Positions 18,975 through 38,382 of a stretch of DNA of 58,345 nt are shown here, in pieces. The position numbers and the translations under genes are program-made. Position 1 is the stretch's first letter; every line of letters starts with the position of its first letter. A model generated the notes under the pieces. The model made no database searches. It was given only the letters and a program-made list of their open reading frames with translations, and had not been told where the DNA came from. The DNA comes from an uncultured Candidatus Saccharibacteria bacterium (GTDB lineage Bacteria; Patescibacteriota; Dojkabacteria; SC72), in NCBI GenBank assembly GCA_964351475.1, contig CAYGOB010000002.1:1-58345 (forward strand). The letters run 5' to 3'.

Positions 18975-19680
18975 CTTTTTCAGGCTCCCCTATCTCATAA
19001 CTCTTATCTTCCTTTAACCATAGTACCCTGTCTGAATACTTCTCTACTGAATCTAATGCATGAGATACATACAGTATAGATTTCTTACCCTTAATCTTGT
19101 CAAAATATGCATAACACTTCCTTTGGAAATCTGCATCACCTACTGCTAATACCTCATCTAAAACAAGTATGTCTGACTTAACTCTAATTGCTATTGAAAA
19201 TGCTAACCTTACTGCCATACCAGAAGAGAAATTCTTTATAGACATATCTGCAAAATCTCTTAACTCTGCAAAATCAAAAATACCATCAATATATTCATCT
19301 AATTCCTTCTTAGTAAGACCAAGTATCGTACCATTAAGATAGACATTTTCTCTTGCACTAAGATCTGGATTAAAACCTACACCTAATTCTAAGAAAGGTA
19401 CTAAATCTCCATTTACTTCTACCTCTCCCTCATCTGCTACATATATCCCAGATACTATCTTTAGTAATGTAGATTTACCTGATCCATTTGGACCTATTAC
19501 ACTAAAAAATTCTCCTTTTTTAACTTCAAAAGAAAGATTTTTAAGAGCATTAAATTCTCTATGTTCTGTCTTTTGAAAAGGATTTAAAAATCTTTCTTGT
19601 AATGTATTCTTATTCCCCTTAACCGGTACTTTAAATTTCTTACTTACATTCTTTACTTGTATTGCTATATTGTTGTCCAT
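18946..19680 (-). CDS. wzt: Polysaccharide/teichoic-acid ABC exporter ATP-binding protein (Wzt/TagH type, NBD only)
   Basis: Walker A GPNGSGKST, signature FSSGMAVRLAFS and Walker B ILVLDE. At 244 aa it has no C-terminal carbohydrate-binding extension. Confidence 0.9.
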   Translation of the reverse strand: MDNNIAIQVKNVSKKFKVPVKGNKNTLQERFLNPFQKTEHREFNALKNLSFEVKKGEFFSVIGPNGSGKSTLLKIVSGIYVADEGEVEVNGDLVPFLELGVGFNPDLSARENVYLNGTILGLTKKELDEYIDGIFDFAELRDFADMSIKNFSSGMAVRLAFSIAIRVKSDILVLDEVLAVGDADFQRKCYAYFDKIKGKKSILYVSHALDSVEKYSDRVLWLKEDKSYEIGEPEKVVSAYKNAE

Positions 19681-19684
19681 ATCT

Positions 19685-20461
19685 TTAAAAATGTTCTGCT
19701 ACTTTTTTTACATTATGTTTGAAATATATATTTCCAATAATTACTAGGATTATGGAAAATATTAAAGATCCTAGTACAAAATCTAAATTAACAATGTTTT
19801 GATATGTAAGAGCTTCTCTTACACTCTGTATGTAGATTGCTATTGGGTTGTACTCTGCTATGAATCTGTATCTTTCAGGAATCATTTCAATTGGGAAGAA
19901 AACTGCTGAAGCATAGAACATTAGTTGTAAACCTAGTTCTGTTATGTGAGTTAGGTCCCTAATATATACCATCCAGATACTGGTAAAGAATGCTATGCCG
20001 TACATAGCTAAGAACATAACTAAACCAATGAGTAATATGTAGGATACTCCTATTACAGAAAACTGGATATCTAAGACTGTCCCTATGACTGCTATTATGA
20101 GGAGATTAATACCAAAATTAATTAATGACATAGTAAGTGCACTAATTACAACAATATCTCTTTTAAAATTAATCTTAAGTATCAGATCTGCTCTTTCCAT
20201 TATTGAACCCATACCCCATGTAATTCCTTCATTAAAGAAGGTATAGATTACTAAACCAGAGAGAAGATATACTGCATATTGCCTAGATGTTAAATTTCCT
20301 ACCTGACCAGATACTGCAGAGAATACTACATAGAGAATTATGAACATGAAGAAGGGTTTGAGTAATACCCAAAAGAACCCTAATAAGGATCCTTTGTATC
20401 TCATCTTAAAGATGGTTTTAACAAATTGCTTGTAGAGGTCTATATCGTTCTTACTTATCAT
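19685..20461 (-). CDS. wzm: ABC-2 type polysaccharide exporter permease (Wzm/TagG type)
   Basis: 258 aa, 6 TM segments, adjacent to wzt. The N-terminus YKGSLLGFFWVLLKP is typical of ABC-2 permeases. Confidence 0.85.
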   Translation of the reverse strand: MISKNDIDLYKQFVKTIFKMRYKGSLLGFFWVLLKPFFMFIILYVVFSAVSGQVGNLTSRQYAVYLLSGLVIYTFFNEGITWGMGSIMERADLILKINFKRDIVVISALTMSLINFGINLLIIAVIGTVLDIQFSVIGVSYILLIGLVMFLAMYGIAFFTSIWMVYIRDLTHITELGLQLMFYASAVFFPIEMIPERYRFIAEYNPIAIYIQSVREALTYQNIVNLDFVLGSLIFSIILVIIGNIYFKHNVKKVAEHF

Positions 20462-21421: not shown

Positions 21422-22684
21422 ATGAATATCAGAGAAATATTTAGAGAGATCTATCCCGTAGATGAATACAAGAAACTTAAGAAAGAAAATCCTTTTCATT
21501 TTTGGTTAACAATATTAATTCCCCTCTCTCTCTTGTTTTTGTTTTTTTATCTATATCTCTATCCTTTTGGATACAGAAAGGAATATACAATTACACAAGA
21601 TAATATTCTAGAAGAGAGAGGAGATCTTTCTTTTTCTCAAGGACAGGGAGAGACTGACGGTCTCTTGCACATAACTGTAGATCCTAAGATAAGGGTGCGA
21701 AATCTGTTTGGAGAGGTAATCGTTAAGGGTGAAGGTGTACATATTTTACATCCTAATATACAAGAAGAAGAAATGTTAGACGTATGGGAATATGAAGTAG
21801 ATAGGTTTCAGATTGAGGGTATCCTCTCAGAAAGAGAACCTACAATCTCTAGAAGTAATGAAGATGAAGAGAAAAAGGCGGATTTTGGGGAATACAAATA
21901 CACTGTATTAGATGAATATGATGTTAAAGATTCTAATACCCTTTCTTTCTATCTTAGATGGGAGGCTTTGACAGAGGAAGCTCTTGTTGGCAATCAGTTA
22001 CTTCTTAAATACCAAAATTTAAGAATAATACAACATCATGAATCAATAGAATTAAGGGTAGATGAAGTCTATGACGGAAATCTTTACACATACCAAATAG
22101 GAGTTTTAACAGAGGAAGAGGAGAATGAATTAATAGCTATATATACCAAACCAGAGAACTCACTAAATGGTTATATTGAATTAGTAGTGAACAATTTAAG
22201 AAGTGGAAGAGTTATTGTAAGTTCTCCTTACAATTTGTTTACAGATTATGATGACCTTCGACAGTATGAAGAACCTCTTAATGAAGAGTTAGTTAAAGAT
22301 TTAAATCAAGAAAAAATATCCTTAGGGCAAGAATTGTATAGAGTAAATATAGAGAACTCTTTTCCAGAAGATCTTGTATCTGCCATTAATTTAGATGTTT
22401 ATTATACTGAGAAGTACAAGACTCCCTTGTTAAGAGAAAAGGAGAAGTCCTCTCCTCTAACATTATCAGAGTATTATCCTAAAGTATTTTACAATTACTT
22501 CAGAGGAAATATTTATGAATTAAGAGTGGGTTATGAGTATCCTTTTGAAAAGATACAAGAACACAGTAGGTTCTATGGCCATACTCCTTTTACATTTCCA
22601 ATAGCAGGACAAACAGAGGATATAGAGGAGATAACTTTTATAACAACTAGAGACCCTATATGGAGAAAGTTAAAGAGTTTGTAA
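21422..22684 (+). CDS. N-terminally anchored extracytoplasmic protein of unknown function (possibly beta-sandwich/LamG-like)
   Basis: 420 aa, one TM (FHFWLTILIPLSLLFLFFYLYLY), then an acidic beta-rich region. Overlaps the next GT-C gene by 25 nt. Confidence 0.5.
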   Translation: MNIREIFREIYPVDEYKKLKKENPFHFWLTILIPLSLLFLFFYLYLYPFGYRKEYTITQDNILEERGDLSFSQGQGETDGLLHITVDPKIRVRNLFGEVIVKGEGVHILHPNIQEEEMLDVWEYEVDRFQIEGILSEREPTISRSNEDEEKKADFGEYKYTVLDEYDVKDSNTLSFYLRWEALTEEALVGNQLLLKYQNLRIIQHHESIELRVDEVYDGNLYTYQIGVLTEEEENELIAIYTKPENSLNGYIELVVNNLRSGRVIVSSPYNLFTDYDDLRQYEEPLNEELVKDLNQEKISLGQELYRVNIENSFPEDLVSAINLDVYYTEKYKTPLLREKEKSSPLTLSEYYPKVFYNYFRGNIYELRVGYEYPFEKIQEHSRFYGHTPFTFPIAGQTEDIEEITFITTRDPIWRKLKSL

Positions 22685-24630
22685 AAAACAAAAATTCATA
22701 TAACTGCTTACTGTTCTTAATAAAAAATATTCTCTTAATGCTATCCTCTATTTTCATATTACATCTTTTGAATGTCATTAATATAAGCGACACAATTTGT
22801 TCACGTACCTTCCTTTTATCATTAATCTACATTTCATTCTTTCTAAATTATTTAACCTTTAAAAAAGAGAAAACAGTAAATTTAATTCTAAAATCTTTTT
22901 TTCTCTTTCTTCTTTTACTTATTCTCATTAATTTAGTTACTAACATAAAGACTCTTTTACCATTTTTACAAGACAATCTTGATGTGTACTTAAATCATCT
23001 GCTCTTCTTAACTGGAATCTCACTCATACTCTTTAACAAAGATATTTTTATTAAAGAAAAGAAAATTAAAAACAAAAAAGATCTCTGGTATATACTCGCT
23101 CTTATCCTTATCGCTCTACTCTTCTTAGCTGTTCACCTATCAATGTTTAGATATCCTGGAGGACATCCTGATGAATTCAGGCACATACTTACTGGGAAAA
23201 CTCTAGTTGAAGAAGGAGCGTTTCCAATATTAACTAGAGGTTATGATGGACAAGGTTACTTAAGAGGGGCTCCTATGTCCATTTTAATAGCAATCTTCTT
23301 TTCCATATTTGGTTTTAGTACCAGGATGGCTAAATTCGTTCCAATATCTCTAGGTTTTTCTACTCTGTTACTGCTATACAAAGTTTCTAAGTATGTAATA
23401 AAAGACAAGATTATTAGGATATTATCTCTCCTACTTTTTGTTCTGAGTCCATGGTTAATATTTATACACTTCTATATCAGGCATTATGTCTTTCTAGAAT
23501 TTTCTTTTGTATTTACTATTTTTCTTTTTATAAAGATCCTAGAAAATATTAAGAATAGAAATAGATTAATTATATATTCTTCTCTACTCTTACTTACTAA
23601 CTTAACTAATTATTTCTTAACATATGACTCTACTAAATTCGTAATACCCTTTGTTTCTCTTTGTGGGATTATTTATCTCTTCACTTCCAAGAGGATTAAG
23701 ATTAATCCTAAGAATAAGGTAATTAAGAATTTCTTAAATCTTAAAAAGAAGAAGAAGTTTTTTATTATATTAATTGCTACTGTAATTATGTTTTTAATAT
23801 CTTCCATCTTCTTGGATTATCAATCATTATTTAATACTCTTTTAAGTGGTAGGACTAATACTGTAACAGGTCATTATAATTTTAATAGCTTTTTCTTTGG
23901 TATATATTCTTTCTTTACAATTTTTCTAATATTTGGATTATTTAGAAATATATTTAGCAAAAAGAATAAGAATAATTTGGTGTTTTTTCTTGTAATACCA
24001 ATAATGATTTTACATTTTCTGTCGAATACTCCTATGCAGATTATGAGGGTTTTAGTTTATCTTTTACCTATGTTTTATGTTTTAGCTTGTTATGGTTTGG
24101 AACAGGTTTTAGGGGTTTTTAAGAAGAATAAATTTATAAAAGTTTTTATTTTAATAACTTTCTCTCTAATATCTGTTTCTATATTAAACAATGATAGAGA
24201 ATTAATATTTTCTAGAGGTTATCCTATTTTCCCTTTAGAGATAGGTTATGATGAGTTTGAACCTATGTATGATTATGTTAAGGAGAATTTAGATGGGTAT
24301 ATATTAATAGAGACTGCTTATTCTAATCAGAGTGGTATTGTTTATGATGTAATTACAAATTACAGGCTTGATCTTAAAAAATCTCAGGTATGTACATATA
24401 CTATGTATTATGATGAGGATGAGGATATTTGTAGACATTATTATACAGATACTTCTGCTATTCATGACAGAGAAGAGTGGAATGAGTTAATAGAGAATAA
24501 TAGTGTTTGTGTATTACTAAGGAGTTATGCTCATAATTTTTTAGAGAGTAGTGATATTAGAAGAATTAGGAGAGATTTTGAATTAAGGGAGAGTTTTATT
24601 GGGTATGATATTTATTGTAGGGACAGGTAG
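22660..24630 (+). CDS. Polytopic GT-C-like membrane glycosyltransferase (PDExxH loop motif; ArnT/PMT/DUF2142-like)
   Basis: 656 aa with >=12 TM segments, HPDEFRH after an early TM, and a ~150-aa soluble C-terminus. Confidence 0.6.
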   Translation: MEKVKEFVKNKNSYNCLLFLIKNILLMLSSIFILHLLNVINISDTICSRTFLLSLIYISFFLNYLTFKKEKTVNLILKSFFLFLLLLILINLVTNIKTLLPFLQDNLDVYLNHLLFLTGISLILFNKDIFIKEKKIKNKKDLWYILALILIALLFLAVHLSMFRYPGGHPDEFRHILTGKTLVEEGAFPILTRGYDGQGYLRGAPMSILIAIFFSIFGFSTRMAKFVPISLGFSTLLLLYKVSKYVIKDKIIRILSLLLFVLSPWLIFIHFYIRHYVFLEFSFVFTIFLFIKILENIKNRNRLIIYSSLLLLTNLTNYFLTYDSTKFVIPFVSLCGIIYLFTSKRIKINPKNKVIKNFLNLKKKKKFFIILIATVIMFLISSIFLDYQSLFNTLLSGRTNTVTGHYNFNSFFFGIYSFFTIFLIFGLFRNIFSKKNKNNLVFFLVIPIMILHFLSNTPMQIMRVLVYLLPMFYVLACYGLEQVLGVFKKNKFIKVFILITFSLISVSILNNDRELIFSRGYPIFPLEIGYDEFEPMYDYVKENLDGYILIETAYSNQSGIVYDVITNYRLDLKKSQVCTYTMYYDEDEDICRHYYTDTSAIHDREEWNELIENNSVCVLLRSYAHNFLESSDIRRIRRDFELRESFIGYDIYCRDR

Positions 24631-26177: not shown

Positions 26178-27089
26178 ATGAAAATTCTTGTAACTGGAAC
26201 ATCTGGTTTTATAGGCAACAAATTAGCAAGCAAACTGAAAGACAAAAACTATACAGTCATTGGAGTTGATATTAAGCGCAATAAAACAAACCCCTCTTAC
26301 AAAAGCATAAAAATAGATCTCGCAGATTGGAATCAAGTAAAAACTCTAGACAATAATTTTGATATTATTTACCATATAGCGGGGCATAGTGCAGGAGACC
26401 TTAGTACAAAGAATTATGCGGAAGATTTAAGAAGTAATACTCTCTCTACTGCTAATATAATAAAATTAGCACAAAACTCTAAAACCAACCAAATTATATA
26501 TGCTTCGAGTATGGCTGTTTATGGAGAGCAGGAGAAATTCCCAATGGCTGAAGATAGAACCCCTAATCCCCTGGTATATTATGGTGCTAATAAGTTGGCA
26601 TCTGAATACTATCTTAAGATAGCAAGCTCTAAGGAATTGCATACAACTTCTATTCGTCTTTTTAATATATATGGACCAGGACAAGATGTTCAAAATCTCA
26701 AACAAGGTCTGGTAAGTATATTTATAGGAGAACTTATAAAAAATAAACACTTGGATATGAGAGGTAGCCCTAAAAGATTCAGAGATTTCTTATACATCGA
26801 TGACACCATAAAAGGATTGATTTTGTGTTTGGGAAACAAAAAAATAAATGGAGAGGTTATAAATCTAGCGTCTGGAAAAGCGCATACGTTAGGAGAATTA
26901 ACAGAAATTATTAGAAAGAATCTCCCTTTTGAAACAACTATCTCTTACTCTAAACCTTCCTCCTTTGATCTTTATGGGATGCATGGAGATATAAGGAAAG
27001 CGAAGAGACTTCTAGGCTTTAAACCGCTGGTATCATTAGAAAAAGGGATCCCTTCTACTCTAAAGTATATAAATGAAATCACCTCATAG
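26178..27089 (+). CDS. NAD-dependent nucleotide-sugar epimerase/dehydratase (extended SDR)
   Basis: MKILVTGTSGFIGNKL and catalytic YGANK (YxxxK). 303 aa. Confidence 0.85.
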   Translation: MKILVTGTSGFIGNKLASKLKDKNYTVIGVDIKRNKTNPSYKSIKIDLADWNQVKTLDNNFDIIYHIAGHSAGDLSTKNYAEDLRSNTLSTANIIKLAQNSKTNQIIYASSMAVYGEQEKFPMAEDRTPNPLVYYGANKLASEYYLKIASSKELHTTSIRLFNIYGPGQDVQNLKQGLVSIFIGELIKNKHLDMRGSPKRFRDFLYIDDTIKGLILCLGNKKINGEVINLASGKAHTLGELTEIIRKNLPFETTISYSKPSSFDLYGMHGDIRKAKRLLGFKPLVSLEKGIPSTLKYINEITS

Positions 27090-27137
27090 AAACCCTTTAA
27101 TCAAGACCTTTCCCTTGGAACCAGAATTCTTATATAT

Positions 27138-28052
27138 CTAAGTCTTCTTAAAAATAGCTCGTATATGAAACCCTTTTTCTCTCTCTCCATATTTATCAGG
27201 AGTTAAAACTTCTCCATTAAACCTTTCCAAATAAGAAATCCCGCATTCTTTTATATCCAAGCACTTAAAACCAGATTCTTCAAAAACTCTTTTAAGAGAA
27301 TTCTTTGTGAAAAAATGTATGTGTGGTGTATCTTTTAAGGGTAACCTCCAATACTGATGAGTAGAATTAGGGACTTCTACAAAAAGAAAACCTCCCTTTA
27401 TACAAATATCCGTTAGAGACCTTATCACATCTTTTAAATCTAATACATGCTCCAGCCAATGACTTGTATGTATATAGTCATACTTCTTCCTAGTCTTAAA
27501 AGGAAAATAGTCTGCAATTTTGTTGACTCCCCTCCTTTTATAATATTCCTCCCATATAACTCCTGGTTCACAAACATCCAATTTTAAACTAGGCTTATTG
27601 CACTTATCTCTCAACAGCAGAGATGCTAAAGCAGGCCCTGCTCCTATTTCCAATACTTTATTTATTCTTTCTTTGGCTATTATATTTAGAGAAGTTTCAA
27701 TCTGTATTTTAGCCCTTGGATCTCCCTTGTAATCTACTTCTGTAAAAAAACTTTTCCCCGTTTTTTCCAGTCTTCCAGACCAATATTGGTCTGAATAATA
27801 ATCTTTTAATTCCTTTTTAGATGGGGGGGTATTCATAACTCCATAACCACAATTGGAACAAATTTTGATATTTCCTCGAAAATGACTCTTTTTTTTACTT
27901 GAGATTTTTTTTAATCTAGAAAATCTTTTAGGTATTAAAAAATTCAAATATTGTAAAAATCTTTTCAAAACAGACTTTATTCGTAAGTCCACTTTGTGCC
28001 GATTATACTTTACAAGATAAAAATCCTCAAAACCACAAATTGTACAAATCAT
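27138..28052 (-). CDS. Class I SAM methyltransferase with N-terminal CxxC...CxxC zinc-ribbon-like segment
   Basis: CTICGF ... CSNCGYG, then VLEIGAGPA and SHWLEHVLD. Confidence 0.75.
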   Translation of the reverse strand: MICTICGFEDFYLVKYNRHKVDLRIKSVLKRFLQYLNFLIPKRFSRLKKISSKKKSHFRGNIKICSNCGYGVMNTPPSKKELKDYYSDQYWSGRLEKTGKSFFTEVDYKGDPRAKIQIETSLNIIAKERINKVLEIGAGPALASLLLRDKCNKPSLKLDVCEPGVIWEEYYKRRGVNKIADYFPFKTRKKYDYIHTSHWLEHVLDLKDVIRSLTDICIKGGFLFVEVPNSTHQYWRLPLKDTPHIHFFTKNSLKRVFEESGFKCLDIKECGISYLERFNGEVLTPDKYGEREKGFHIRAIFKKT

Positions 28053-28071
28053 AAAACTTTAATATTAGAAT

Positions 28072-28797
28072 TTACTTTTTATAACCAACATATATTGTTT
28101 CCCAATTTTCTCTCCATCCACCCAAAGAATCTATAGGTGGTTTATCTACCCCCCCCTTAATATTCCCTCCTCGCATATCTTTTCTTCGCATTTGAATATC
28201 ATACCCAGCTAAATGTCTTTTTATTTGACTCGTTCTTTCGAAGAGATATGCTAACCCATAATGAGAATAACGAAATGTATCCACAGGAACAGGATGATAA
28301 CGCCATGAGAAAGGGGTTACACATATCACTATCCCCCCTTTTTTAGTAATTCTTACTGATTCCTCTGCGGCTCTCCAAGGTTCCTTAATATGCTCAAACA
28401 CATTGTTGCTAAAAACCACATCAAAAAAGTTGTCTGGGATTTCAGGGATATGACAAATATCTCCATTTATAACATTAGATTCTTTTATACTTTCATCAAT
28501 TTCCAATATCGAATACTCAAACCCTTCGGCAAGATAACTATATTCACCAAAACGACCTCCTACATCTAAAAACCTTAACTTCTCAACTTTTCTTTCTTGG
28601 TACTTCTTAATGAGACCTCGAATATCATCATAGTTGTAAAACTTAATATCTGGAGAGTACTCTACATCTTTGATATATGGTTCTTCACTAGATTTCCTTA
28701 TCTTAAAAAACTTACCTCTTCTTTTCCAGATTCCCGAGATTCCTTCCTTTTTTAAAATCTTATTGAACGTTTTCCCTTTTTTTTTCAAGCTTCCCAT
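28072..28797 (-). CDS. Class I SAM methyltransferase (Methyltransf_11-like)
   Basis: FLDVGGRFGE and VFSNNVFEHIKEPW. Confidence 0.8.
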   Translation of the reverse strand: MGSLKKKGKTFNKILKKEGISGIWKRRGKFFKIRKSSEEPYIKDVEYSPDIKFYNYDDIRGLIKKYQERKVEKLRFLDVGGRFGEYSYLAEGFEYSILEIDESIKESNVINGDICHIPEIPDNFFDVVFSNNVFEHIKEPWRAAEESVRITKKGGIVICVTPFSWRYHPVPVDTFRYSHYGLAYLFERTSQIKRHLAGYDIQMRRKDMRGGNIKGGVDKPPIDSLGGWRENWETIYVGYKK

Positions 28798-28813
28798 AAC
28801 TTTTTAATAAAAA

Positions 28814-30640
28814 CTATTTACCCCTCCCCACCATCTCCCTAAACTTCTCATTCCTCTCTTCTAATTCATCATACTTACCTTTATCTATAATCCTGCCCTT
28901 ATCAATTAAATATATCCTATCACAATTTTTTACACTAGTAAGCCTATGAGCTATAACAACCATAGTCTTTAATTTAGAAACTCTCTCTATTGCTTTTAAT
29001 ACACTCCTCTCTGTAACATTATCTAAAGAACTAGTAGCCTCATCAAAAACTAACACCTCTGGATTATGATACAAAGCCCTAGCTATACCTATCCTCTGTC
29101 TCTGTCCACCGCTTAATCTTACTCCTCTCTCTCCAATAACAGTATCATACCCTTCTGGTAATTCCGTCTCTATAAACTTATTAATATTTGCCATCCTGGC
29201 CACCTTCTTAACTTGTTCTAAATCTATCTCTTCATCACCATACCCAAATGCAATATTCTTAGTAATAGTATCATCACATAAGAATATGTCCTGAGGTACA
29301 TAACCTAAATTAGCTTGCCAATTCCTTACATTATTTTCTGTTATCTTATTACCATCTACATATATACTACCCTCTGTAGGAGTTAACAAACCTAATACAA
29401 TATCCACTAATGTAGTCTTACCTGAACCAGTAGTGCCCACAATACCAACAGACATACCCTTACTAATATCCATATCTATATCCTCTAAGACCCTGTTTCT
29501 ATTCCCATCGTATGAGAAAGAAATATTATCTAACTTAATTTCCTTCTTAAACTCTATCGGTTCAGGTAAGACTACATCAAAATCTACCTCTACATCAGAT
29601 AATCCCCCTTCATTCATATCATAGTGAATTTTGTTAAGAACAGGTCTATTAAATCTAAATTCTGTAAAAGAGCTATATATACTTTGAAGAGCAGGCATTA
29701 ATCTGTACCCTGCAAAAGCAAATAGACCTATTAAAGGAATTATTTCATTTGTCATTTGATCTGAGTATATGAAGTAAAGAACTAAACCTAATACTCCTCC
29801 AAATGCTACAATTTCCATAATAAATTTAGGTGTTTTACCTAAAACCTTATACCAAGACTGTAAATCTGAAAACTTCTTAGAATGTTTAGAGTAGTCCTCT
29901 AAAAAATATTTTTCTCTTCCTAAAACCTTGGTATATTTAATTCCCCCCATAGCTTCTCCAACCGCTTTAAATCTAGTTCTGTTTTCTTCTATTCTTTGCC
30001 TTCCTGCACTTTTAAGTCTATTAGAAAAAATTGTATATATTAATAGATAAATGGAGCCCAATGCTACTAGGGTTATTAGAGTCATTATAGGATTAACTAC
30101 TATTAACATAATGAATATCACAGAAGCAATAACTCCTCCTTCCACTATATTAAGAACTGCCAATAAAAATTTCCCTGTTAATTCATTTACTTCTGTAAGG
30201 ATATTCTTTCCTAGATCAGAGCTATTATGGGTTAGAAAATAGCTATATGGTAGAGATAGATATTTACCCAAGAGAGAGACCGAAAGCCTATTATCAAGTT
30301 CCCATACGAAGGATGTCTTAAGTTTTACAGATAGTACAGATACTAAATTACCTATGATTAACAAAAGAAGTACTAGAATTCCTACAGTGAACATAAATTT
30401 ATTTACTGTAGTGAAGTTAAATAGATCATAGAAATACATAAGCTGATCATTAGATTCTACCAGTGTAGGATCCATTACCATATTAAGAAATGGTAAGACA
30501 GAGAGTATACCAATTGCTTGAAGAAGACCTACCAAAAGGTCTATAAAGAGAACTTGAAGAAGTTTAAATTTTTCTTTCTTTTCTAGTAAATCATTAATCT
30601 TGTAAAGAAACCCTAATTTCTGTTTGATTTTGGCTATCAT
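28814..30640 (-). CDS. ABC exporter, fused TMD-NBD half transporter (MsbA/PglK-like)
   Basis: 608 aa, 6 N-terminal TM segments, Walker A GTTGSGKTT, signature LSGGQRQR, Walker B LVFDEATS. Confidence 0.9.
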   Translation of the reverse strand: MIAKIKQKLGFLYKINDLLEKKEKFKLLQVLFIDLLVGLLQAIGILSVLPFLNMVMDPTLVESNDQLMYFYDLFNFTTVNKFMFTVGILVLLLLIIGNLVSVLSVKLKTSFVWELDNRLSVSLLGKYLSLPYSYFLTHNSSDLGKNILTEVNELTGKFLLAVLNIVEGGVIASVIFIMLIVVNPIMTLITLVALGSIYLLIYTIFSNRLKSAGRQRIEENRTRFKAVGEAMGGIKYTKVLGREKYFLEDYSKHSKKFSDLQSWYKVLGKTPKFIMEIVAFGGVLGLVLYFIYSDQMTNEIIPLIGLFAFAGYRLMPALQSIYSSFTEFRFNRPVLNKIHYDMNEGGLSDVEVDFDVVLPEPIEFKKEIKLDNISFSYDGNRNRVLEDIDMDISKGMSVGIVGTTGSGKTTLVDIVLGLLTPTEGSIYVDGNKITENNVRNWQANLGYVPQDIFLCDDTITKNIAFGYGDEEIDLEQVKKVARMANINKFIETELPEGYDTVIGERGVRLSGGQRQRIGIARALYHNPEVLVFDEATSSLDNVTERSVLKAIERVSKLKTMVVIAHRLTSVKNCDRIYLIDKGRIIDKGKYDELEERNEKFREMVGRGK

Positions 30641-30737
30641 AAGCTAAAGATATAAATATGACAAAAGAGTATACCACTAAAGTAAAATTTTATATATTTG
30701 AAACTTTGGAACTATTTGCAGACCATATCTATTATTA

Positions 30738-31520
30738 CTATTTCTTTTTATATTTAATTTTATGTATATATTTTAACAAGCCTAACTTTCTTAGCAAAAA
30801 AATAACAAATAACTTTACTCTACTCTTAATATAAAACCAAATAGCATATTTCAATCCAAAATACTTTTTAAGAGATCTATGTCCTTCTGAGACTTTTGAG
30901 CTAATACCACCTTTCTTAAAATAGACAATTGATCTATCAATCTCCTTCATTTTTACACCATTAGTATACATTCTACAAAGATATTCATAATCCCCAGAGC
31001 CTTTATATGAAATATCGAAATCCCCTAATCTTTCAAAGATCTCTTTCTTATAAAAAAATGCTTGTTGTGGGAGGCTACGAGGTTTTATTAAATTCTTCCT
31101 ATTTACAGAACATCTTGTCTCAAATTTCATATTCAACTCATCTATTAACTTAATAACATATCCATAAATTAAGTCTACTTCAGGATTTTCATTAAAACTT
31201 CTTACAACATCTCGTACAACATTATTATCACAAAAATAATCATCTGAATTTAAAAAATGAATAATTTTCCCATTTGCTTCTTTAAGACCCTTGTTCATTG
31301 CTTCATATATTCCTTTATCTGGTTCAGATATCCAATATTTTATTTTACTCTCATATTGTTTAATTAGATCAACTGTTCCATCAGTAGATCCACCATCTAT
31401 AACTATGTATTCGATATTGGTATAGGTTTGAGAAAAGACAGATTTAAAACATCTCTCTAAGTATTTTGATGAATTGTAGGTTACGGTTATAATTGTTACT
31501 AATGATTTCTCTCTTCTCAT
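30738..31520 (-). CDS. GT2 glycosyltransferase
   Basis: VTIITVTYNSSKYL...VIDGGSTDGT...NSDD. Confidence 0.85.
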   Translation of the reverse strand: MRREKSLVTIITVTYNSSKYLERCFKSVFSQTYTNIEYIVIDGGSTDGTVDLIKQYESKIKYWISEPDKGIYEAMNKGLKEANGKIIHFLNSDDYFCDNNVVRDVVRSFNENPEVDLIYGYVIKLIDELNMKFETRCSVNRKNLIKPRSLPQQAFFYKKEIFERLGDFDISYKGSGDYEYLCRMYTNGVKMKEIDRSIVYFKKGGISSKVSEGHRSLKKYFGLKYAIWFYIKSRVKLFVIFLLRKLGLLKYIHKIKYKKK

Positions 31521-32860
31521 CCCTTCACCTTGCTAATTGTATATAAATATTTACCACTGCTCAAAGATTTTATATTGTTAACAAAAAACCACTCCACTTC
31601 ACAATCTCCTCCCATCACCAACCTTATCTTTTTCTCTATATCCTTTGCCTCTTCCTTATTTTCCTGATTATTAAGCTCTATTTTTATAACTATTCTCTTA
31701 TACCCTTCTTGTATTACTTGAAACTTCTTAACCCAATTCTTCATATAAAATAAATGGGTAAAGTACTCTCCGTCTATAATATCACCATCCTTTGTTCTAA
31801 ATAGATTTACATCTCTACCTCGAACACTCTCAAGCATCGGAAACCCCCTCCCACATTTACATCTTCCATCCTTTGATAATACTGCTAAATCTCCTATATC
31901 ATACCTTATCAACGGCACAGAATAATTGTTTAAAGTTGTAACATAAACCTTGCCCATTTTACCTGGTTTACTTGGATTCAAATCTTTATCCAAGACTTCT
32001 ACAAACAAATTCAGATTATTTAAATGTAACTGATCTGTTTCAGAACACGAACATGCTATATCTCCGACCTCTCTGGAACCATACCTGTTAAAGACTTTAC
32101 AATCGAAAACTTCTTCTATAAGCTCTCGCATCTCAGGATACAAAGTTCCTGCAGATGTTATTACACCCTTGGGACTATGGATTTCAAGTTTTTTCCCCTT
32201 AATAAATTTAGCAAACTCATAAACTGATTGTACATATGCTTCTACAATCTCTGGTTTAAAGGAGTTAATCTTCTCGACATAGTTAAGCATATCTTCCTCA
32301 GACATCTTAAAAGAATTTAACATAACCCTTTGAGAGATAAAATTTTTAACCTGTGCTTTTAAACCAACAGAACCTTTTAAAATGTCTCTCTCAGAACCCC
32401 AAAGTTTAACTAGTTTACAAGGATAATCACAAATAAAAGAGTAAAACAACCACTTAACAGCCATCCCGCTAGTCCAAGTTCTATTATCTTGATAGAACTT
32501 CACAGGCTCTCCCGTAGAACCTCCAGATGTATTTAAATATGGCTTCCTTTTCTCAAAATTAGGATCAGTTGATTTTAATTTCTCAAAATTTTCCTGTATT
32601 ATATCTTTCGTTAAAATCGGAATCTTATTAAAGTTCTTAAGAAGGATTTTATTATCTTTAATAATTTCAATTTCATTAAAGAGTTCCCTGTAATAGGGGA
32701 CATATTGATATGAGTGCAACAAGATCTTTTTTAAATTCTCCTCCTGAATTTTCGTATTCTCTTCTAGTGTATTGTGTTGCTTTTCTAAAAAACTTCTATA
32801 AACATGAAATATATTCCTGCCTTGCAATTTTAGACCTAACTCAAGCAACTTATCTTTCAT
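31517..32860 (-). CDS. CapK / coenzyme-F390-synthetase-like adenylate-forming enzyme (PaaK superfamily)
   Basis: NTSGGSTGEPVKFYQD (AMP-binding P-loop-like motif of the CapK/PaaK family), YGSREVG, IRYDIGD and CKCGRGFPMLESVRGR. Confidence 0.75.
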   Translation of the reverse strand: MKDKLLELGLKLQGRNIFHVYRSFLEKQHNTLEENTKIQEENLKKILLHSYQYVPYYRELFNEIEIIKDNKILLKNFNKIPILTKDIIQENFEKLKSTDPNFEKRKPYLNTSGGSTGEPVKFYQDNRTWTSGMAVKWLFYSFICDYPCKLVKLWGSERDILKGSVGLKAQVKNFISQRVMLNSFKMSEEDMLNYVEKINSFKPEIVEAYVQSVYEFAKFIKGKKLEIHSPKGVITSAGTLYPEMRELIEEVFDCKVFNRYGSREVGDIACSCSETDQLHLNNLNLFVEVLDKDLNPSKPGKMGKVYVTTLNNYSVPLIRYDIGDLAVLSKDGRCKCGRGFPMLESVRGRDVNLFRTKDGDIIDGEYFTHLFYMKNWVKKFQVIQEGYKRIVIKIELNNQENKEEAKDIEKKIRLVMGGDCEVEWFFVNNIKSLSSGKYLYTISKVKG

Positions 32861-33962
32861 TAATATATTTCAGAAATTTATTTGCATTAACAGTTATATC
32901 ATGTGTTTTAACAAAATATTCCTTAGCATTCACACTAAGCCTATCATAAAGATTTTTATCCCTTAATAACCTCTCACACTTCTTTTCTAAAACTTCCTGA
33001 CTATCATTACACACAAAACCACACTCATGCTTATCTATAAAATTATTGGGATTAACCTTTAAGGATAATATCGGAGTCCCCTCCCTAGTCGCTTGTATTA
33101 AGGAATTAGCAAAACCTTCTTTTTCTGAAGTTATTACATATATCTTCGCCTTTTTAAAATAGTTATCTATTTTATCAAAAGGTACAAAATCTATAAATTT
33201 AAGGTTCTTGATTCTATCTGCTTTCTTCTTAATTTCGATAAAATAATCTGGACTATCTGTTGCTTCAGGACAAATCATAACAAAATATTCCTTTGGAAAA
33301 CGTTGAGCTAGGTTGATAAAAATCTCTGGTCTTTTCCAGCTCTCCGATCTCCCAACCCAAAGTATAATATCTTTACTAATCTCTGTCTCATTATGAGAAG
33401 ACAACCAGGAAGATGATAGCGTAATTAACCTAGATCCACCTATATTATTTCTTAAATTCGAATTTTGATACTCATTCTGGACAAAAACAATACCGGCATA
33501 CTTAAAAACTAAACTTGCTATATATCCCTTTAGTTTACTCCCATATAATCTATGTGTACCATCTGCCTCACTATCATGAGCAACCATATAAACAAATTTT
33601 TTCTTCCTTAATTTACAATATAGAGCTATTAAACCAGACTCCACTGTTAAAGTTCTCTGAACGTATACATCTGCATTTACCTTGTTAAAAATCTTAAAGA
33701 AATCTAATACCTGCTTTAATTTGTTATCTTTAAAATTTAGACCTTTCCAAACTTTAACTCCATCATAAGTTTCTTTTTCTTCTTGACCATAATCAGCTAC
33801 TATAAAATAAATATCTAACTCCTTTTTCTTAGCTAGTTCCTTTGAAAGCAAAGTTAATTGAACTTCAGCCCCACCAAATGTGGATTTAATCTCAGGATTA
33901 AATAAAGGATATGCTTTGAGAGACACAAAACAAATTTTAGTTGATTTGTTCACTTCCTTCAT
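32850..33962 (-). CDS. GT4 (GT-B fold) glycosyltransferase
   Basis: C-terminal EGFANSLIQATREGTPIL (the E-x7-E region of GT4). 370 aa. Confidence 0.8.
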   Translation of the reverse strand: MKEVNKSTKICFVSLKAYPLFNPEIKSTFGGAEVQLTLLSKELAKKKELDIYFIVADYGQEEKETYDGVKVWKGLNFKDNKLKQVLDFFKIFNKVNADVYVQRTLTVESGLIALYCKLRKKKFVYMVAHDSEADGTHRLYGSKLKGYIASLVFKYAGIVFVQNEYQNSNLRNNIGGSRLITLSSSWLSSHNETEISKDIILWVGRSESWKRPEIFINLAQRFPKEYFVMICPEATDSPDYFIEIKKKADRIKNLKFIDFVPFDKIDNYFKKAKIYVITSEKEGFANSLIQATREGTPILSLKVNPNNFIDKHECGFVCNDSQEVLEKKCERLLRDKNLYDRLSVNAKEYFVKTHDITVNANKFLKYINER

Positions 33963-35275
33963 ACCTCACATACCGTATATAAATATTTACCACTCTTAGT
34001 AGATTCTATATTATCTACAAATTTCCATTTAATATTAAACTCCTCCCCCACTAATACCCTAATCTTTTCTTCTATCTCTTTCATCTCTTCCTTATTTTCT
34101 TTTCCTTCTACCTTAATTAATATTGTATTAAAACTTTTTTGTACTGCCTGAAACTTCTCTATCCAATCCCTAAAAAACAACATCTGAACTAAAAAATGAC
34201 TATGCTTTAAACTACCATCCCTCTTCTTAAAAAAACCTAATGTCCTACCTACTACCTGCCCAACTGTAAGATATATTTTAATACCACCTAGTTCATATGA
34301 TTTATTACCCTCTGTTGCTACATCTCCAATATCATACCTAATTAAAGGCATAGAATAATTATCCATACAAGTTATTAAAATTCTTTTTTCTTCTGAATCT
34401 CCATCTAACTCTAAAAGGTGTCTCCAAAAAGAAATATCTAAATTCCGATTCTTTCCTTCTAAACCAATCCCTCCCATCTCTCTAGATCCATATTGGTTGT
34501 ACACTTTACATCCAAAAGCTCCTTCAATTACTTTTCTGTTTTCTTCATAAAGAGGACCTATTGTGGAGATTATGAACTTAGGAGTATAAAGATTTATTTT
34601 ATTCTCTAATATGTATTTACTAAATTCATATACACCATCTACATATGCCCAGTAAGATACTGGTTTGAAACTGTTGTGTAAATCTATTAGCTCTTTTATT
34701 TTCTCTTCTGAGAAATCATAGCAGTTAAAGAACTTTCTGTTGTAAACAAAATTAATTACTCTATCTTTAAGTGTGAGATTCCCTTCCAAGATATCTCTAT
34801 CTGATCCCCACAGTTTTATTTCTCTTTCTCCTACTTGCTTTCCATACTTATTAAAGTAATACATCTTAGTAGCCACATTCCAATCATCATACTCTCTATC
34901 TTGTAAAAATTTTACAGGTTCTCCTGTACTACCCCCTGATGTATTCTCATAGGATTTTCTTTTTTTATGATCCTTAGAATAAAGATTATCTCCTTCTTTT
35001 CTAATAATCTCTTTAGTTAGTATCGGTATCTTATTAAAGTTCTCTAAATATACTCTACCATCCTTTACTACCCCAACATCTTTTAAGACTCTACTGTAGT
35101 AAGGTACATTTTCATAGGAATGAAGAAGTAAATTTTTTAATTTCTCTTTCTGTAATTTTTCTATCTCTTCCTTAGACATCTTTTCATATTCAAGTATCTT
35201 CTTAAAATACTTCATCCTCTTACTACCCTCTAACCAAGAAAGAAAACATATTGTAGGTTTACGCCAGTTAAACAT
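33959..35275 (-). CDS. CapK / F390-synthetase-like adenylate-forming enzyme, paralogue of 31517..32860
   Basis: NTSGGSTGEPVKFLQD, YGSREMG and IRYDIGD, with the same N-terminal LLLHSYENVPYY block. It lacks the CxCGR motif of the paralogue. Confidence 0.75.
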   Translation of the reverse strand: MFNWRKPTICFLSWLEGSKRMKYFKKILEYEKMSKEEIEKLQKEKLKNLLLHSYENVPYYSRVLKDVGVVKDGRVYLENFNKIPILTKEIIRKEGDNLYSKDHKKRKSYENTSGGSTGEPVKFLQDREYDDWNVATKMYYFNKYGKQVGEREIKLWGSDRDILEGNLTLKDRVINFVYNRKFFNCYDFSEEKIKELIDLHNSFKPVSYWAYVDGVYEFSKYILENKINLYTPKFIISTIGPLYEENRKVIEGAFGCKVYNQYGSREMGGIGLEGKNRNLDISFWRHLLELDGDSEEKRILITCMDNYSMPLIRYDIGDVATEGNKSYELGGIKIYLTVGQVVGRTLGFFKKRDGSLKHSHFLVQMLFFRDWIEKFQAVQKSFNTILIKVEGKENKEEMKEIEEKIRVLVGEEFNIKWKFVDNIESTKSGKYLYTVCEV

Positions 35276-35353
35276 ATATTACAGAAACTATAATTAAATC
35301 TATATGGTATTATATTAGCCATAAAGTTTAGGTTCTGTATATTATAAACCAAA

Positions 35354-37267
35354 ATGGATAAGAAGAAAGAAATCTCCCTGCCCTATTTTGTACTAGGCGT
35401 TAGTCTACTAATTATTTTGTATCTCTTTTTACACTTTATATTCGGTATTCATACATATACTAATTTACTAATCTTCACTATACTGACTTCTATCCCTTCT
35501 TATCTTTTAATCTTATTTATTAAAAACAATCCTAAGAAAGAAAAGAATTTTCGAATATTTCTTCTAATATTTTTACTAATATTGTACTTATACTTGTCTT
35601 TTTATAACTATATAAATATAGAATTTGTTAACCTTCATTTAGACAAAATCTCGGTACTACTCTTTGCTACCCTCGCTGTCCTACTTACTACAGCAAAAGA
35701 GAGTTCCACAAAGAGATACTCTATAAAGAAGTGGGTTACCACTTTTTTATTAGTAGTCATCATATTAGTAGGAGCAGGATTAAGAATTAAGGATACAAAA
35801 AATCTCTCCTTTAGAAACGATGAGTATCAGGTTGTTGCAGCCGCTGCTGGATATAGATACACAGGGACATTCATGTATTGGAACTTCCTAACAGACACTC
35901 CTGATTCTATACAAAGTTGTCCAGAATTAGATGAAACATGTAACTATTACACTAGAGCATATCCCCACTCTATGTTAATTGCACTCTCTTTCCGCTTGTT
36001 TGGTATCTCTGAGCTATCTGCAAGAATTCCATCTCTTGTATTCGGAATTCTTCTTATACCTCTTTCATTTTTCTTTGCAAAGTACATAACAAAAAGAGAC
36101 GACATTTCTTTAATATATACCTTCCTAATTGCAAACTATGGTTTATTTATACATTTGTCAAAATATACTAGGATGTATGCTCTAGTAATTCCTATTACAA
36201 TTTTATCTGTCTATTTTCTTTACAGAGGTCTCTTTGAAAAACCAAGAAAAGAAATTTCTAACAAATTCCTCAGCAGCTATTTTTCATACAGATATGTTGA
36301 ACTAATTGTAGGATCGTTACTTTTGTACCTTGCTTATCTTCTGCATATCAATGTTGTTGCTATTGTACCTGTATTATTCATATTTATAATTTACAAATTT
36401 TTGTCTACTAGAGAAAAAAAATATTTACCTATAATCTTGCTAGGGGTGTTATTCATAGTCATTTCTGTTTTAAACTTTAATACATCGCTATCTATTCGAA
36501 TAATATACATAATCTTTAAGTGGATGTCTCCCTTTGGAAGATTTAATTCAGTATATCTAAGTCATTTGATCGGGTATCCACTAAACCTCCTAATTGCAAT
36601 TCCTCTTATCCTCTCAAGTATACTTTTTATTAAAAAACTTAAACTAAAAGAACAAAGAGACCACTTAGTATTTCTAATAATTTGTACAATTACTGTAATA
36701 ATTTCTTTCGTATTCATAGCCGACAGATATGCCTCCTCTGTGTATGTCTCTATGTTTATGCCATTTAGTTTTCTGTTAGTTACTTGGTTATTCTTTTTAA
36801 TAAATGAAAAAATTATTTCAAATATAAAGAACAGAAATCTTTTTGTTATATTACTTCTGATCATTATAATGGGTTTACCTATGCTTTTAAGAAAGGTTGA
36901 AGATACTGATCCATCGCCTCCTCTAGATCATAAACGTGCGTATTCAATAATAAATGAGAGATTTGATCCTGAAAAAGATATTATTCTAGGCCAATATCTA
37001 AGAAACTACTATCTTGATCCAGAGAGAATTGATCCAGATAGAATATACTCCCTAAATATAAAAGAAAGATTAACCTATGAAGAATTCCTTGAGCTTGTAA
37101 GAAATGCCCCTTCTGGATACATCGTCTGGGCAGACAACAAAAAATGGCATATAAGACCTGAAATAAGACAATATTGCTGTGATAACTTCGAACAACTAAG
37201 TGGAGAAAGTTGCTCAGAACCAGTAAATGACTACAGAATAGAAATATTCTACTTCTCTAATGAATAG
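35354..37267 (+). CDS. Polytopic GT-C membrane glycosyltransferase (ArnT/PMT_2-like)
   Basis: 637 aa with >=12 TM segments, the loop motif RNDEYQ, IPSLVFGILLIPLSFFFAKYI, and a soluble C-terminal ~130 aa. Confidence 0.65.
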   Translation: MDKKKEISLPYFVLGVSLLIILYLFLHFIFGIHTYTNLLIFTILTSIPSYLLILFIKNNPKKEKNFRIFLLIFLLILYLYLSFYNYINIEFVNLHLDKISVLLFATLAVLLTTAKESSTKRYSIKKWVTTFLLVVIILVGAGLRIKDTKNLSFRNDEYQVVAAAAGYRYTGTFMYWNFLTDTPDSIQSCPELDETCNYYTRAYPHSMLIALSFRLFGISELSARIPSLVFGILLIPLSFFFAKYITKRDDISLIYTFLIANYGLFIHLSKYTRMYALVIPITILSVYFLYRGLFEKPRKEISNKFLSSYFSYRYVELIVGSLLLYLAYLLHINVVAIVPVLFIFIIYKFLSTREKKYLPIILLGVLFIVISVLNFNTSLSIRIIYIIFKWMSPFGRFNSVYLSHLIGYPLNLLIAIPLILSSILFIKKLKLKEQRDHLVFLIICTITVIISFVFIADRYASSVYVSMFMPFSFLLVTWLFFLINEKIISNIKNRNLFVILLLIIIMGLPMLLRKVEDTDPSPPLDHKRAYSIINERFDPEKDIILGQYLRNYYLDPERIDPDRIYSLNIKERLTYEEFLELVRNAPSGYIVWADNKKWHIRPEIRQYCCDNFEQLSGESCSEPVNDYRIEIFYFSNE

Positions 37268-38382
37268 GCTCCTTCGTATAACTTAACATACTCCCCAGCC
37301 ATATTATCCCAACTCATACCCTCTGCCTTCCTTCTACTCTCTTTACCCATACTCTCTAACAATTCCCTATCACTATACAACCTCTCTAAACCTTCTTTTA
37401 TTTCTTCACTATTCTCTTTCTTAACTACAAAACCATTCCTACTATCTACTAACTCCTTAGTACCACCTACATCAGTAGCTATTATTGCTAAACCACTAGC
37501 CATAGCTTCTAACAAACTATTACTCATACCCTCATTCTTAGAAGGAAGTACAAACACATGACACCTTGGAATATTCTTAGCTATATCCTCCCTCGAAGCT
37601 TCTCCTTTAAATTCTACCTTATCCTGTATATTCAACTCCTCTACCATAGCCTCTAATTCTTCCCTCTGATCTCCATCTCCATAGAATAATAATCTTACAT
37701 TTTCCTTACCGTTTTGAAACTCTCCAAAAGCTTCTATTAAATAGTTAAGACCCTTTCTCTCTGTTAACCTAGATGTAGACACTATTGTAAACTCATCCTC
37801 CTTCTCTTTAGGTTTAAATATATTAGTATCCACACCGTTATATATAACCCCAATATCTTTCTTGTCATACGTCTCGTATGCTAGATCTCTAAGACCTGCA
37901 GAATTAGCTACTACATACTTAGCTCTCTTCCATATTAATTTAGAAAGATGTTGAAATATATATTTATCTAATTTTTCATACTTTTTACTATAGAAGGGTA
38001 CATCACTACCCCTTAAAGAAACAATATATGGTTTTCCTATTAACATTGCTAAAAAACCAGAAGGTATTCCAAAAAAAGCATGAATTAAATCATATTCTTT
38101 TCTGTTCTTTAACATCCATTTAAAAGCCTTACCTGAATATTTAAGTAAATTCTTATTACTCTGATTATGTAAACCGCCTTCCTTATCTATATCTAACCTT
38201 ACAACCCTAACATTATCCCCTATACTCTCTTCCATATACTTACCTACTGAAGATGTAAGTAATATCAACTCTATATCATCTTTATCTTTTAACTGTTGTA
38301 GAAGATTATATGTGGCAGTAGCTGCACCTCCTCCCAAAGGAGGATATTCATAGTTAAGTATCAGTACTTTCATTTTCTTCAT
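37249..38382 (-). CDS. GT4 (GT-B fold) glycosyltransferase
   Basis: ILNYEYPPLGGGAATA at the N-terminus and EGMSNSLLEAMASGLAIIATDVGG. Confidence 0.9.
   Translation of the reverse strand: MKKMKVLILNYEYPPLGGGAATATYNLLQQLKDKDDIELILLTSSVGKYMEESIGDNVRVVRLDIDKEGGLHNQSNKNLLKYSGKAFKWMLKNRKEYDLIHAFFGIPSGFLAMLIGKPYIVSLRGSDVPFYSKKYEKLDKYIFQHLSKLIWKRAKYVVANSAGLRDLAYETYDKKDIGVIYNGVDTNIFKPKEKEDEFTIVSTSRLTERKGLNYLIEAFGEFQNGKENVRLLFYGDGDQREELEAMVEELNIQDKVEFKGEASREDIAKNIPRCHVFVLPSKNEGMSNSLLEAMASGLAIIATDVGGTKELVDSRNGFVVKKENSEEIKEGLERLYSDRELLESMGKESRRKAEGMSWDNMAGEYVKLYEGAYSLEK

Follow-up and report, generated by a model that had tools for sequence, protein, structure and literature searches.

Tandem GT4-CapK cassettes in a Patescibacteria surface-glycan operon encode candidate CoA-independent amide ligases

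Two CapK genes in a glycan operon

We analysed a 58,345-nt stretch of DNA (contig CAYGOB010000002.1 of assembly GCA_964351475.1; hereafter the window) from an uncultured Candidatus Saccharibacteria bacterium belonging to the Patescibacteria, and asked what is encoded by two of its genes, those for the CapK-like proteins CapK-A and CapK-B. Both lie in an operon of seven minus-strand genes running from 35275 to 27138, and they are the only two CapK copies in the source genome (0.65 Mb, 55 contigs, ~82% complete). A sequence-only reading of the same DNA had described a 'sandwich' of two CapK open reading frames (ORFs) around a glycosyltransferase of family GT4, followed by one of family GT2, and all four ORFs lie where it had placed them. 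The unit, however, is not a sandwich but a GT4→CapK cassette that occurs twice in tandem, as GT4up→CapK-A and GT4m→CapK-B; the GT4 partner of CapK-A, encoded at 37249-38382, had been left out of the proposed triad. The genes concerned are the following.

37249-38382, minus strand: GT4up, canonical GT4 with the EX7E motif EGMSNSLLEA at 37504-37533; PF00534 at 144.7 bits, plus PF13439.
35354-37267, plus strand: polytopic membrane protein, ORF of 637 aa, splitting the GT4up/CapK-A cassette; no Pfam or NCBIfam match.
33959-35275, minus strand: CapK-A, predicted PaaK-fold adenylate-forming enzyme of a Cys-less subfamily, ORF of 438 aa; A3 at 34907-34942, A5 at 34478-34492, A7 at 34322-34342, hinge GR at 34241-34255, A10 Lys at 33974-33994.
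32850-33962, minus strand: GT4m, member of a distinct GT4 subfamily, 370 aa; PF00534 at 66.8 bits.
31517-32860, minus strand: CapK-B, predicted PaaK-fold adenylate-forming enzyme with a Cys cluster, ORF of 447 aa; A3 at 32495-32530, A5 at 32069-32083, A7 at 31889-31909, hinge at 31811-31825, A10 Lys at 31538-31558.
30738-31520, minus strand: GT2, WcaE/TuaG-like, 260 aa; PF00535 at 100.3 bits, wcaE model at 92.6 bits (under its cutoff).

Read base by base, the junctions of these genes consist of an ATGA at 33959-33962, an 11-nt ATG...TAA overlap at 32850-32860 and a second ATGA at 31517-31520, in agreement with the overlaps of 4, 11 and 4 nt reported earlier. The last of them couples GT2 translationally to CapK-B. 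Purine-rich stretches resembling ribosome-binding sites (GAGG, AAGG) precede the first and third starts at the CapK/GT junctions. A promoter and terminator scan of 26900-35600 returned fewer sites than shuffled sequence did and was hence uninformative.

CapK-A and CapK-B are predicted adenylate-forming enzymes

CapK-A and CapK-B align over 436 aa with 41% identity (E 1e-109), a similarity far beyond chance; the two are true paralogues, as had been proposed. The motifs said to be common to them, TSGGSTGEPVKF, YGSRE and IRYDIGD, were present in both proteins, and so were a C-terminal SGKYLYT, the P-loop TSGGSTGEP and the hinge GR. In alignments of 26 and 32 sequences, A3, A5 (YGxxE), A7 (RYxxGD), the A8 hinge GR and the A10 Lys were invariant or more than 90% conserved, and neither CapK has lost any core adenylation motif. 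Structure models were confident for CapK-A (pLDDT 90.6, pTM 0.87) and CapK-B (pLDDT 89.4, pTM 0.86) and showed secondary-structure elements in the same order. A Foldseek search with the CapK-B model (best E 6.6e-28) gave matches with E-values of 1e-21 to 1e-28 to BT_0428, PaaK1, ClxA (9s3l/9s45), 2-hydroxyisobutyryl-CoA ligase, NatL2 (6siw) and AjiA1, with TM-scores of 0.67-0.70 to BT_0428 (4r1l) and PaaK1 (2y27). As modelled, both CapKs are intact PaaK-fold members of the ANL superfamily of adenylate-forming enzymes. Because the core ANL motifs are complete and near-invariant across the family, and the models are confident, both are very probably active adenylating enzymes.

Neither protein matched a Pfam library older than PF27533, but this does not make them orphans: the precomputed Pfam annotation of the protein database assigns PF27533 (CapK_C; PF27533.1) to both and to nearly all their homologues, and the match was missing since the family is newer than the library. 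NCBIfam gave only sub-cutoff matches, to models of PaaK, F390 synthetase, the DVU1553 family (the best, with 129.8 bits where the cutoff is 300) and the FlxY ligase. The specific models scored far too low for assignment: PaaK proper (TIGR02155, cutoff 646.3) gave 76.7 bits with CapK-B and 48.2 with CapK-A, the haloarchaeal PaaK model (NF041878, cutoff 700) 87.4 and 54.9, and coenzyme F390 synthetase (TIGR03335, cutoff 458.7) 58.1 and 35.2. By these profile scores the CapKs should be neither PaaK proper nor F390 synthetase proper.

The similarity to PaaK (TIGR02155; PDB 2y27/2y4n) extends to the fold, the two-domain organization and the motifs A3, A5, A7, A8 and A10, whereas the genetic context differs, there being no paa catabolic genes around the CapKs in the window. 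Relative to BT_0428, the HMMER alignment shows ~30 additional N-terminal residues in CapK and replacement of the BT_0428 segment SSGYGMFTGGLG by the family-invariant LWGS(E/D)RDI. ClxA, NatL2 and AjiA1 of the benzoxazole pathway, the closest solved structures beside PaaK and BT_0428, share the fold; they handle small aromatic acids in secondary-metabolite clusters outside any glycan context, and their identity to CapK-B is about 18-23%.

Two CapK subfamilies with matched glycosyltransferases

The two paralogues had been reported to differ in one Cys motif, and CKCGRG indeed occurs in CapK-B alone. The divergence is more than a local quirk, however, since the whole Cys cluster is lost from a well-supported clade. 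In a tree of 233 homologues CapK-A falls into a starred clade of 31 proteins, all of which miss CxCG, and CapK-B into a clade of 72, of which 66 have kept it. The CapK-B cysteines are C270/C272 (32039-32056) and C334/C336 (31844-31861); the CapK-A residues aligned to them are Leu, Gly, Leu and Gly (within 34271-34294 and 34454-34474). Among 314 family members, 220 have all four cysteines, 37 lack only the first, 56 have neither pair, and a single protein has the first pair without the second. This co-variation suggests that the cysteines of the CapK-B type form a structural cluster, possibly metal-binding, that was lost as a unit by the A clade.

The associated glycosyltransferases are split in a similar manner. 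The Pfam scan of the window proteins identified in GT4m a GT-B C-terminal domain but no N-terminal GT4 domain, and Gln takes the place of the second Glu in EX7E (EGFANSLIQA, 33090-33119). This EX7Q signature was found in 17 of 19 members of the GT4m subfamily (consensus EGFPNTFIQA). Upstream of each A-type CapK gene seen away from a contig edge stands a GT4up-type gene, either directly or across one methyltransferase gene, while each GT4m gene adjacent upstream of a CapK gene precedes a B-type CapK; canonical GT4s can also precede B-like CapKs. GT4m orthologues with >40% identity were confined to CapK-positive genomes. A strict co-distribution was nevertheless rejected: relatives with 30-36% identity occur in seven CapK-negative genomes and three CapK-positive genomes have no GT4m, and the coupling of GT4m to CapK is frequent rather than obligate. 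Judged from sequence, CapK-A and CapK-B represent two real and distinct subfamilies with matched GT4s. As each CapK subtype has its own GT4 subtype, it is reasonable to suppose that the two enzymes have different substrates or acceptors.

Conservation of the GT4-CapK cassette in other genomes

The CapK-GT4-CapK string was expected to recur as a unit in related genomes, and it is kept in at least two further Patescibacteria genomes; in both it is part of the tandem arrangement. G137 (locus L005; same family) and G024 (L015/L090; Saccharibacteria chromosome OZ246411, placed in the same phylum as the source organism) each have the order GT4up-CapK(A)-GT4m-CapK(B), co-directional and mostly overlapping, with the GT4m orthologue between the two CapK genes. 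GT4up orthologues (48-53% identity) lie directly 5′ of an A-type CapK gene in L005/G137, L090/G024, L092/G080 and L093/G171. In the window, the two are parted only by the plus-strand membrane-protein gene at 35354-37267, which is missing in L005 and L090, where GT4up abuts CapK-A. A GT4-CapK-GT4-CapK array also occurs on a Methanosarcinaceae contig (L007), with a PGA_cap gene (CapA-like, PF09587; L007:6668-7690) directly after the two cassettes.

To place these arrangements in a wider frame, we took a census of neighbourhoods in 80 loci from named genomes of bacteria and archaea, comprising 85 CapK genes. A same-strand GT4 gene was the immediate upstream neighbour of 36 of the 85 (17 overlapping, 25 within 50 nt) and a GT4 gene the immediate downstream neighbour of 23; GT4s occurred somewhere in 71 of the 80 loci. 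NAD-dependent epimerases were found in 28/80 loci, FemAB-like proteins in 13/80 and asparagine-synthase-like proteins in 10/80, and Wzx/Wzy proteins and methyltransferases recurred as several smaller families. Methyltransferase genes also lie beside CapK in the window, L003, L006 and G080. CapK_C relatives account for >4,900 database clusters (E≤1e-10, among 8,000 candidates examined) and occur in at least 555 species-representative genomes, among them Patescibacteria, DPANN, Bacillaceae, Nostoc, Planctomycetota and Methanosarcinales. Their distribution is patchy: they were present in 13 of 301 Patescibacteria genomes and in 13 of 301 from the phylum to which the Pacearchaeote belongs.

Several arrangements fall outside the GT4-CapK pattern or extend it. 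A DUF362 protein of ~500 aa is encoded in 16/80 loci (e.g. L021:11281-12780) and immediately downstream of CapK in 11/85 cases; none is encoded in the window. An Atribacterota contig (L077; DAOUWX010000023) carries four CapK-family genes within 10 kb (4684-5922, 8903-10168, 11580-12872 and 13115-14416), and Chloroflexota-type metagenome-assembled genomes (L061, L075) have adjacent CapK pairs with no GT4 between them. Heterocystous cyanobacteria (Nostoc-type loci L040, L051, L068, L069, L071, L076, L080, L083 and L084) have kept a GT4-CapK-GT4-FemAB-like-Wzy-like string; these carriers are culturable and thus usable for study of the CapK_C family. In the Patescibacteria genome G066 the CapK match (G066:C9:42621-43916) crosses one in-frame TAA, possibly a pseudogene or a sequencing error.

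Gene fusions link CapK to amine chemistry

Fusions found elsewhere in the family are informative for the role of CapK. In a DPANN genome (G550; L095:2915-5350, plus strand) an 811-aa protein combines a CapK-like ligase with a class I/II aminotransferase of the HisC type (285 bits with the hisC model, whose cutoff is 276.6); an overlapping GT4 gene (1839-2927) precedes it and a PHP phosphoesterase gene (5347-6054) follows. A Nanoarchaeia genome (G303; L025:9167-11332, plus strand) encodes a 721-aa protein in which a CE4 polysaccharide de-N-acetylase (PF01522, PgaB/IcaB-like) is fused to CapK (E 2.9e-151 of the CapK part to the family profile), followed by Wzx at 11335-12843. Both fusions appear to tie CapK to amine chemistry, and the second hints that some family members may act on a freshly exposed sugar amine. 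A third fusion, of a distant CapK/PaaK-like domain and an S-adenosylmethionine (SAM) methyltransferase, was found in Patescibacteria (G076; 732 aa, L088:1459-3657, minus strand), with a canonical GT4 gene (343-1452) starting 7 nt downstream. Its methyltransferase domain shows only generic similarity to the window methyltransferases (E 6e-4 and 0.026), and a specific link was not established.

Possible supply of a sugar carboxylate

A carboxylate for the CapKs had been sought in a uronic acid, whose synthesis was assigned to two genes that we also recovered by profile scores.

8227-9321, minus strand: WecB-like non-hydrolysing UDP-GlcNAc 2-epimerase; PF02350 at 177.7 bits, wecB model at 199.2 bits (cutoff 210) against 40.5 for NeuC.
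10939-12213, minus strand: nucleotide-sugar 6-dehydrogenase, nearest to the UDP-ManNAc/UDP-GlcNAc dehydrogenase type; TIGR03026 at 394 bits (above cutoff).

The dehydrogenase scored higher with models of UDP-ManNAc dehydrogenase (294 bits), TviB (250) and WecC (242) than with the UDP-Glc dehydrogenase AglM (175). On this evidence, the gene set of the window could make a UDP-N-acetylhexosamine (UDP-HexNAc) uronic acid, and the dehydrogenase is a possible source of the carboxylate. That part of the earlier proposal stands; a link of the uronic acid to the CapKs is plausible but indirect; the two genes lie ~20 kb away in other operons.

We also compared the presence of UGDH-family dehydrogenases with that of CapK in 602 small genomes (Patescibacteria and DPANN). 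UGDH matches were found in 16 of 20 CapK-positive and 304 of 582 CapK-negative genomes (pooled p=0.011), a modest association; among Patescibacteria a UGDH was present in 6 of 7 strongly CapK-positive genomes, compared with 136 of all 301 (p=0.035, one-sided Fisher test). UGDH genes lie ~2-7 kb from CapK in G137, G066, G090 and G024, and G090 has an epimerase→TviB-like dehydrogenase (430 bits)→GT4m string beside a divergent CapK gene. An obligatory dependence of CapK on UGDH was rejected, because four CapK-positive genomes have no UGDH-family match: G080 (99% complete), G301, G431 and G594, of which G301 has a GT4m→CapK pair.

A proposed mechanism

In addition to the genes listed above, three further genes of the operon enter into the interpretation.

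28814-30640, minus strand: PglK/MsbA-type ABC exporter with transmembrane and nucleotide-binding domains (PF00664 and PF00005); PglK model at 357 bits (under its cutoff).
28072-28797, minus strand: class I SAM methyltransferase (PF08241/PF13489), in the same operon as the CapK genes.
27138-28052, minus strand: SAM methyltransferase with N-terminal Cys pairs (CTICG ... CSNCG), closing the operon; PF13489 at 63.6 bits.

We propose that the operon (35275→27138) and the GT4 gene at 37249-38382 serve together to make and export a surface glycan on a lipid carrier, by means of two 'add sugar, then tailor' cassettes, GT4up→CapK-A and GT4m→CapK-B. Each CapK would use ATP to adenylate a carboxylate, most likely the one at C6 of a (HexNAc) uronic acid newly placed by its cognate GT4 on the polyprenyl-linked oligosaccharide as this grows on the cytoplasmic side, and would then hand the acyl group straight to an amine, e.g. 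an amino acid, to give an amide without involvement of CoA. The next transferase would follow each CapK step, with GT2 acting after CapK-B, so that the gene order GT4-CapK-GT4-CapK-GT2 mirrors the proposed order of reactions. The ABC protein is likely to be the flippase of the lipid-linked product and would export it, and the two terminal methyltransferases would tailor the glycan further. Genes for making an amine are missing from the operon, and the simplest assumption is therefore that a common amino acid serves as the amine. Gene structure and coupling, the modelled fold, the conserved catalytic motifs, the conservation of the cassettes and the split into subfamilies come directly from the data, whereas the carboxylate and the amine, the independence of CoA, a substrate on a lipid carrier and the sequence of reactions are what we infer here; that the CapKs are CoA-independent, ATP-dependent amide ligases acting on lipid-linked uronic acids, interleaved with chain extension, is a proposal we regard as evenly poised.

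The closest parallel comes from Vibrio cholerae. VpsH (VC0924), annotated as CapK or phenylacetate-CoA-ligase-like (PMC12505965), is required for a glycine amide on bactoprenyl-PP-Glc-GulNAcA according to genetics from 2026, and acts after VpsA, VpsB, VpsK and VpsJ but before the GT4 VpsI; its activation chemistry is, by the authors' own account, still putative (PMC13463779). The statement of the sequence-only reading that CapK chemistry is essentially uncharacterized is therefore slightly outdated. VpsH resembles CapK-A and CapK-B in its CapK annotation, its location in a glycan operon and a neighbouring GT4 gene (vpsI), and the VPS pathway supplies a HexNAc uronic acid through the WecB/WecC-like VpsA and VpsB, which have counterparts in the WecB-like and dehydrogenase genes of the window. 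The context of a VpsH-type pathway is thus present, with the epimerase and dehydrogenase at their distance and GT4s flanking both CapKs. VpsH, moreover, acts on a lipid-linked disaccharide ahead of the next glycosyltransferase. The systems differ in that VPS has a single copy where the window has a tandem GT4-CapK array, and in export, which is by Wzx/Wzy in the one and a PglK-like ABC protein in the other. The relationship of VpsH to CapK-A and CapK-B appears remote, to judge from the literature (BLAST E of about 1e-16 to another CapK-like protein), and we liken them by annotation.

A second parallel is one of pathway logic. In the Campylobacter jejuni HS:2 capsule, the aminotransferase Cj1437 makes serinol phosphate, the ATP-grasp domain of Cj1438, an amidoligase fused to a glycosyltransferase, uses it to amidate the terminal GlcA of the growing chain, and Cj1435 strips the phosphate before the next glycosyltransferase acts (PMC12096443). 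Locus L095 parallels the Cj1437/Cj1438/Cj1435 gene set, except that CapK stands in for the ligase, and this aminotransferase/phosphoesterase context fits an amide ligase. The fold is unrelated, however, as the C-terminal part of Cj1438 is an ATP-grasp domain with acyl-phosphate chemistry, and the aminotransferase and phosphatase of the C. jejuni set have no equivalent in the window; if the window system worked in the manner of Cj1438, its amine would have to be a common metabolite. CoA independence has precedents inside the PaaK family, among the closest solved relatives ClxA, NatL2 and AjiA1, which we counted in favour of the amide-ligase mechanism: NatL2 and ClxA pass acyl-adenylates straight to a hydroxyl or an amine without CoA (PMC7204872, PMC9400959, PMC12519233). 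Staphylococcus aureus CapK, after which the family is named, is encoded in the locus of the type 1 capsule and carries the same family annotation, by which it is likened here. In that capsule taurine is amide-linked to GalNAcA, which would fit amide chemistry. Literature searches for CapK with taurine, or for phenylacetate-CoA ligase with O-antigen, returned nothing relevant.

Alternative explanations

Several observations weigh against amidation of a uronic acid. The WecB-like and dehydrogenase genes stand not only far from the CapKs but beside a second export system, Wzm/Wzt. The UGDH association did not reach significance in DPANN (10 of 13 CapK-positive genomes against 184 of 301, p=0.18), the four UGDH-negative genomes named above include a 99% complete one, and a UGDH gene lies within 10 kb in just 11 of the 80 CapK loci. 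The functional evidence for the CapK_C family consists of the VpsH genetics only, and the relation of VpsH to the proteins studied here is judged from the literature. Finally, every biochemically characterized enzyme of the PaaK family (PaaK, HCL, ClxA, NatL2 and AjiA1) activates a small free acid and not a glycan, and the CE4 deacetylase-CapK fusion points to possible acylation of a sugar amine instead.

These last two points would favour a scheme, in our judgement unlikely, in which each CapK adenylates a small free acid (an amino acid or hydroxy acid) and, again without CoA, N- or O-acylates the sugar of its partner GT4. Such a scheme needs no uronic acid and so accounts for G080, G301, G431 and G594, and the fusion suggests a fresh sugar amine as acceptor. 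Family scans of the window proteins, however, found no de-N-acetylase or aminotransferase gene and hence gave no indication of a free sugar amine that could be acylated, and neither a de-N-acetylase nor a sugar aminotransferase is among the 25 commonest neighbour families of the 80 loci. VpsH, the one CapK-annotated protein with a functional assignment, must have the carboxylate of the sugar activated, since it is the amino group of glycine that enters the amide, and the aminotransferase-phosphoesterase context of L095 suits a small amine donor and not a small acid donor.

It is improbable that the CapKs are classical acyl-CoA ligases whose thioesters are used by a separate acyltransferase to decorate the glycan. 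The automatic annotation 'phenylacetate-CoA ligase family' and the best NCBIfam matches (DVU1553 family, FlxY and PaaK models) would lead one to expect this, but the scores fall well short of the curated cutoffs, the operon was found to contain no acyltransferase gene, and acyltransferases are not consistent CapK neighbours, only L005 having a hexapeptide-repeat gene; a tight coupling to GT4 would also be unexpected for a CoA ligase working at the metabolite level. Transfer of AMP (or GMP) to a glycan hydroxyl or phosphate in the manner of F390 synthetase, without an acyl-adenylate intermediate, is highly improbable: the weak matches to F390 synthetase and 'F390 synthetase-related' models and the name 'adenylyltransferase' carried by one database homologue stand against scores far under the cutoff, a conserved A10 catalytic Lys and hinge typical of two-step ligases, and fusion partners (aminotransferase, de-N-acetylase) that indicate amine chemistry. 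A small-molecule pathway of the bacillithiol or mycothiol kind, which also combines a GT4 with a ligase, was set aside in view of the GT2s and PglK-like exporter of the operon and its position inside a 35-kb glycan region.

Implications for the CapK_C family

That CapK_C is a Pfam family annotated in thousands of genomes, and that GT4-CapK pairs recur across bacteria and archaea, is already known; CapK_C proteins turn up very frequently in loci for surface glycans, and the locus described here is not exceptional among them. What it adds are tandem cassettes with matched ligase and glycosyltransferase subtypes, co-varying cysteines that one of the subtypes has lost as a cluster, and the EX7Q subfamily of GT4. 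Two diverged paralogues with their own GT4s, together in a single compact operon, also make a handy matched pair for the study of specificity, and the CapK chemistry is directly testable, more easily in cultured carriers.

As a tentative generalization, about which we are more doubtful than convinced, CapK_C proteins of bacteria and archaea might form an extensive and so far overlooked group of glycan amide ligases that need no CoA, each acting on lipid-linked intermediates in step with its own glycosyltransferase, with subfamilies matched to glycosyltransferase types and tandem cassettes that write a doubly amidated repeat. If so, every cassette would contribute a single sugar acid, already amidated when the following transfer takes place, a modular 'GT-ligase' logic in which the Cys-less A-type goes with a canonical EX7E GT4 and the Cys-cluster B-type with an EX7Q GT4. 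Amide ligases coupled to glycosyltransferases in this way would explain many of the amino-acid and amine substituents found on microbial polysaccharides, and would provide a second, adenylate-based route beside the ATP-grasp amidoligases.

Other features of the window

The glycan region of the window encodes two export systems, an ABC-2 transporter of the Wzm/Wzt type (18946-20461) and the PglK/MsbA-type half-transporter at 28814-30640. Several large polytopic proteins have no family match (15134-17095, 22660-24630 and 35354-37267), and a PMT_2-like protein is encoded at 4235-5587. The window also codes for DsbA and for a sortase with an LPETG-type substrate.

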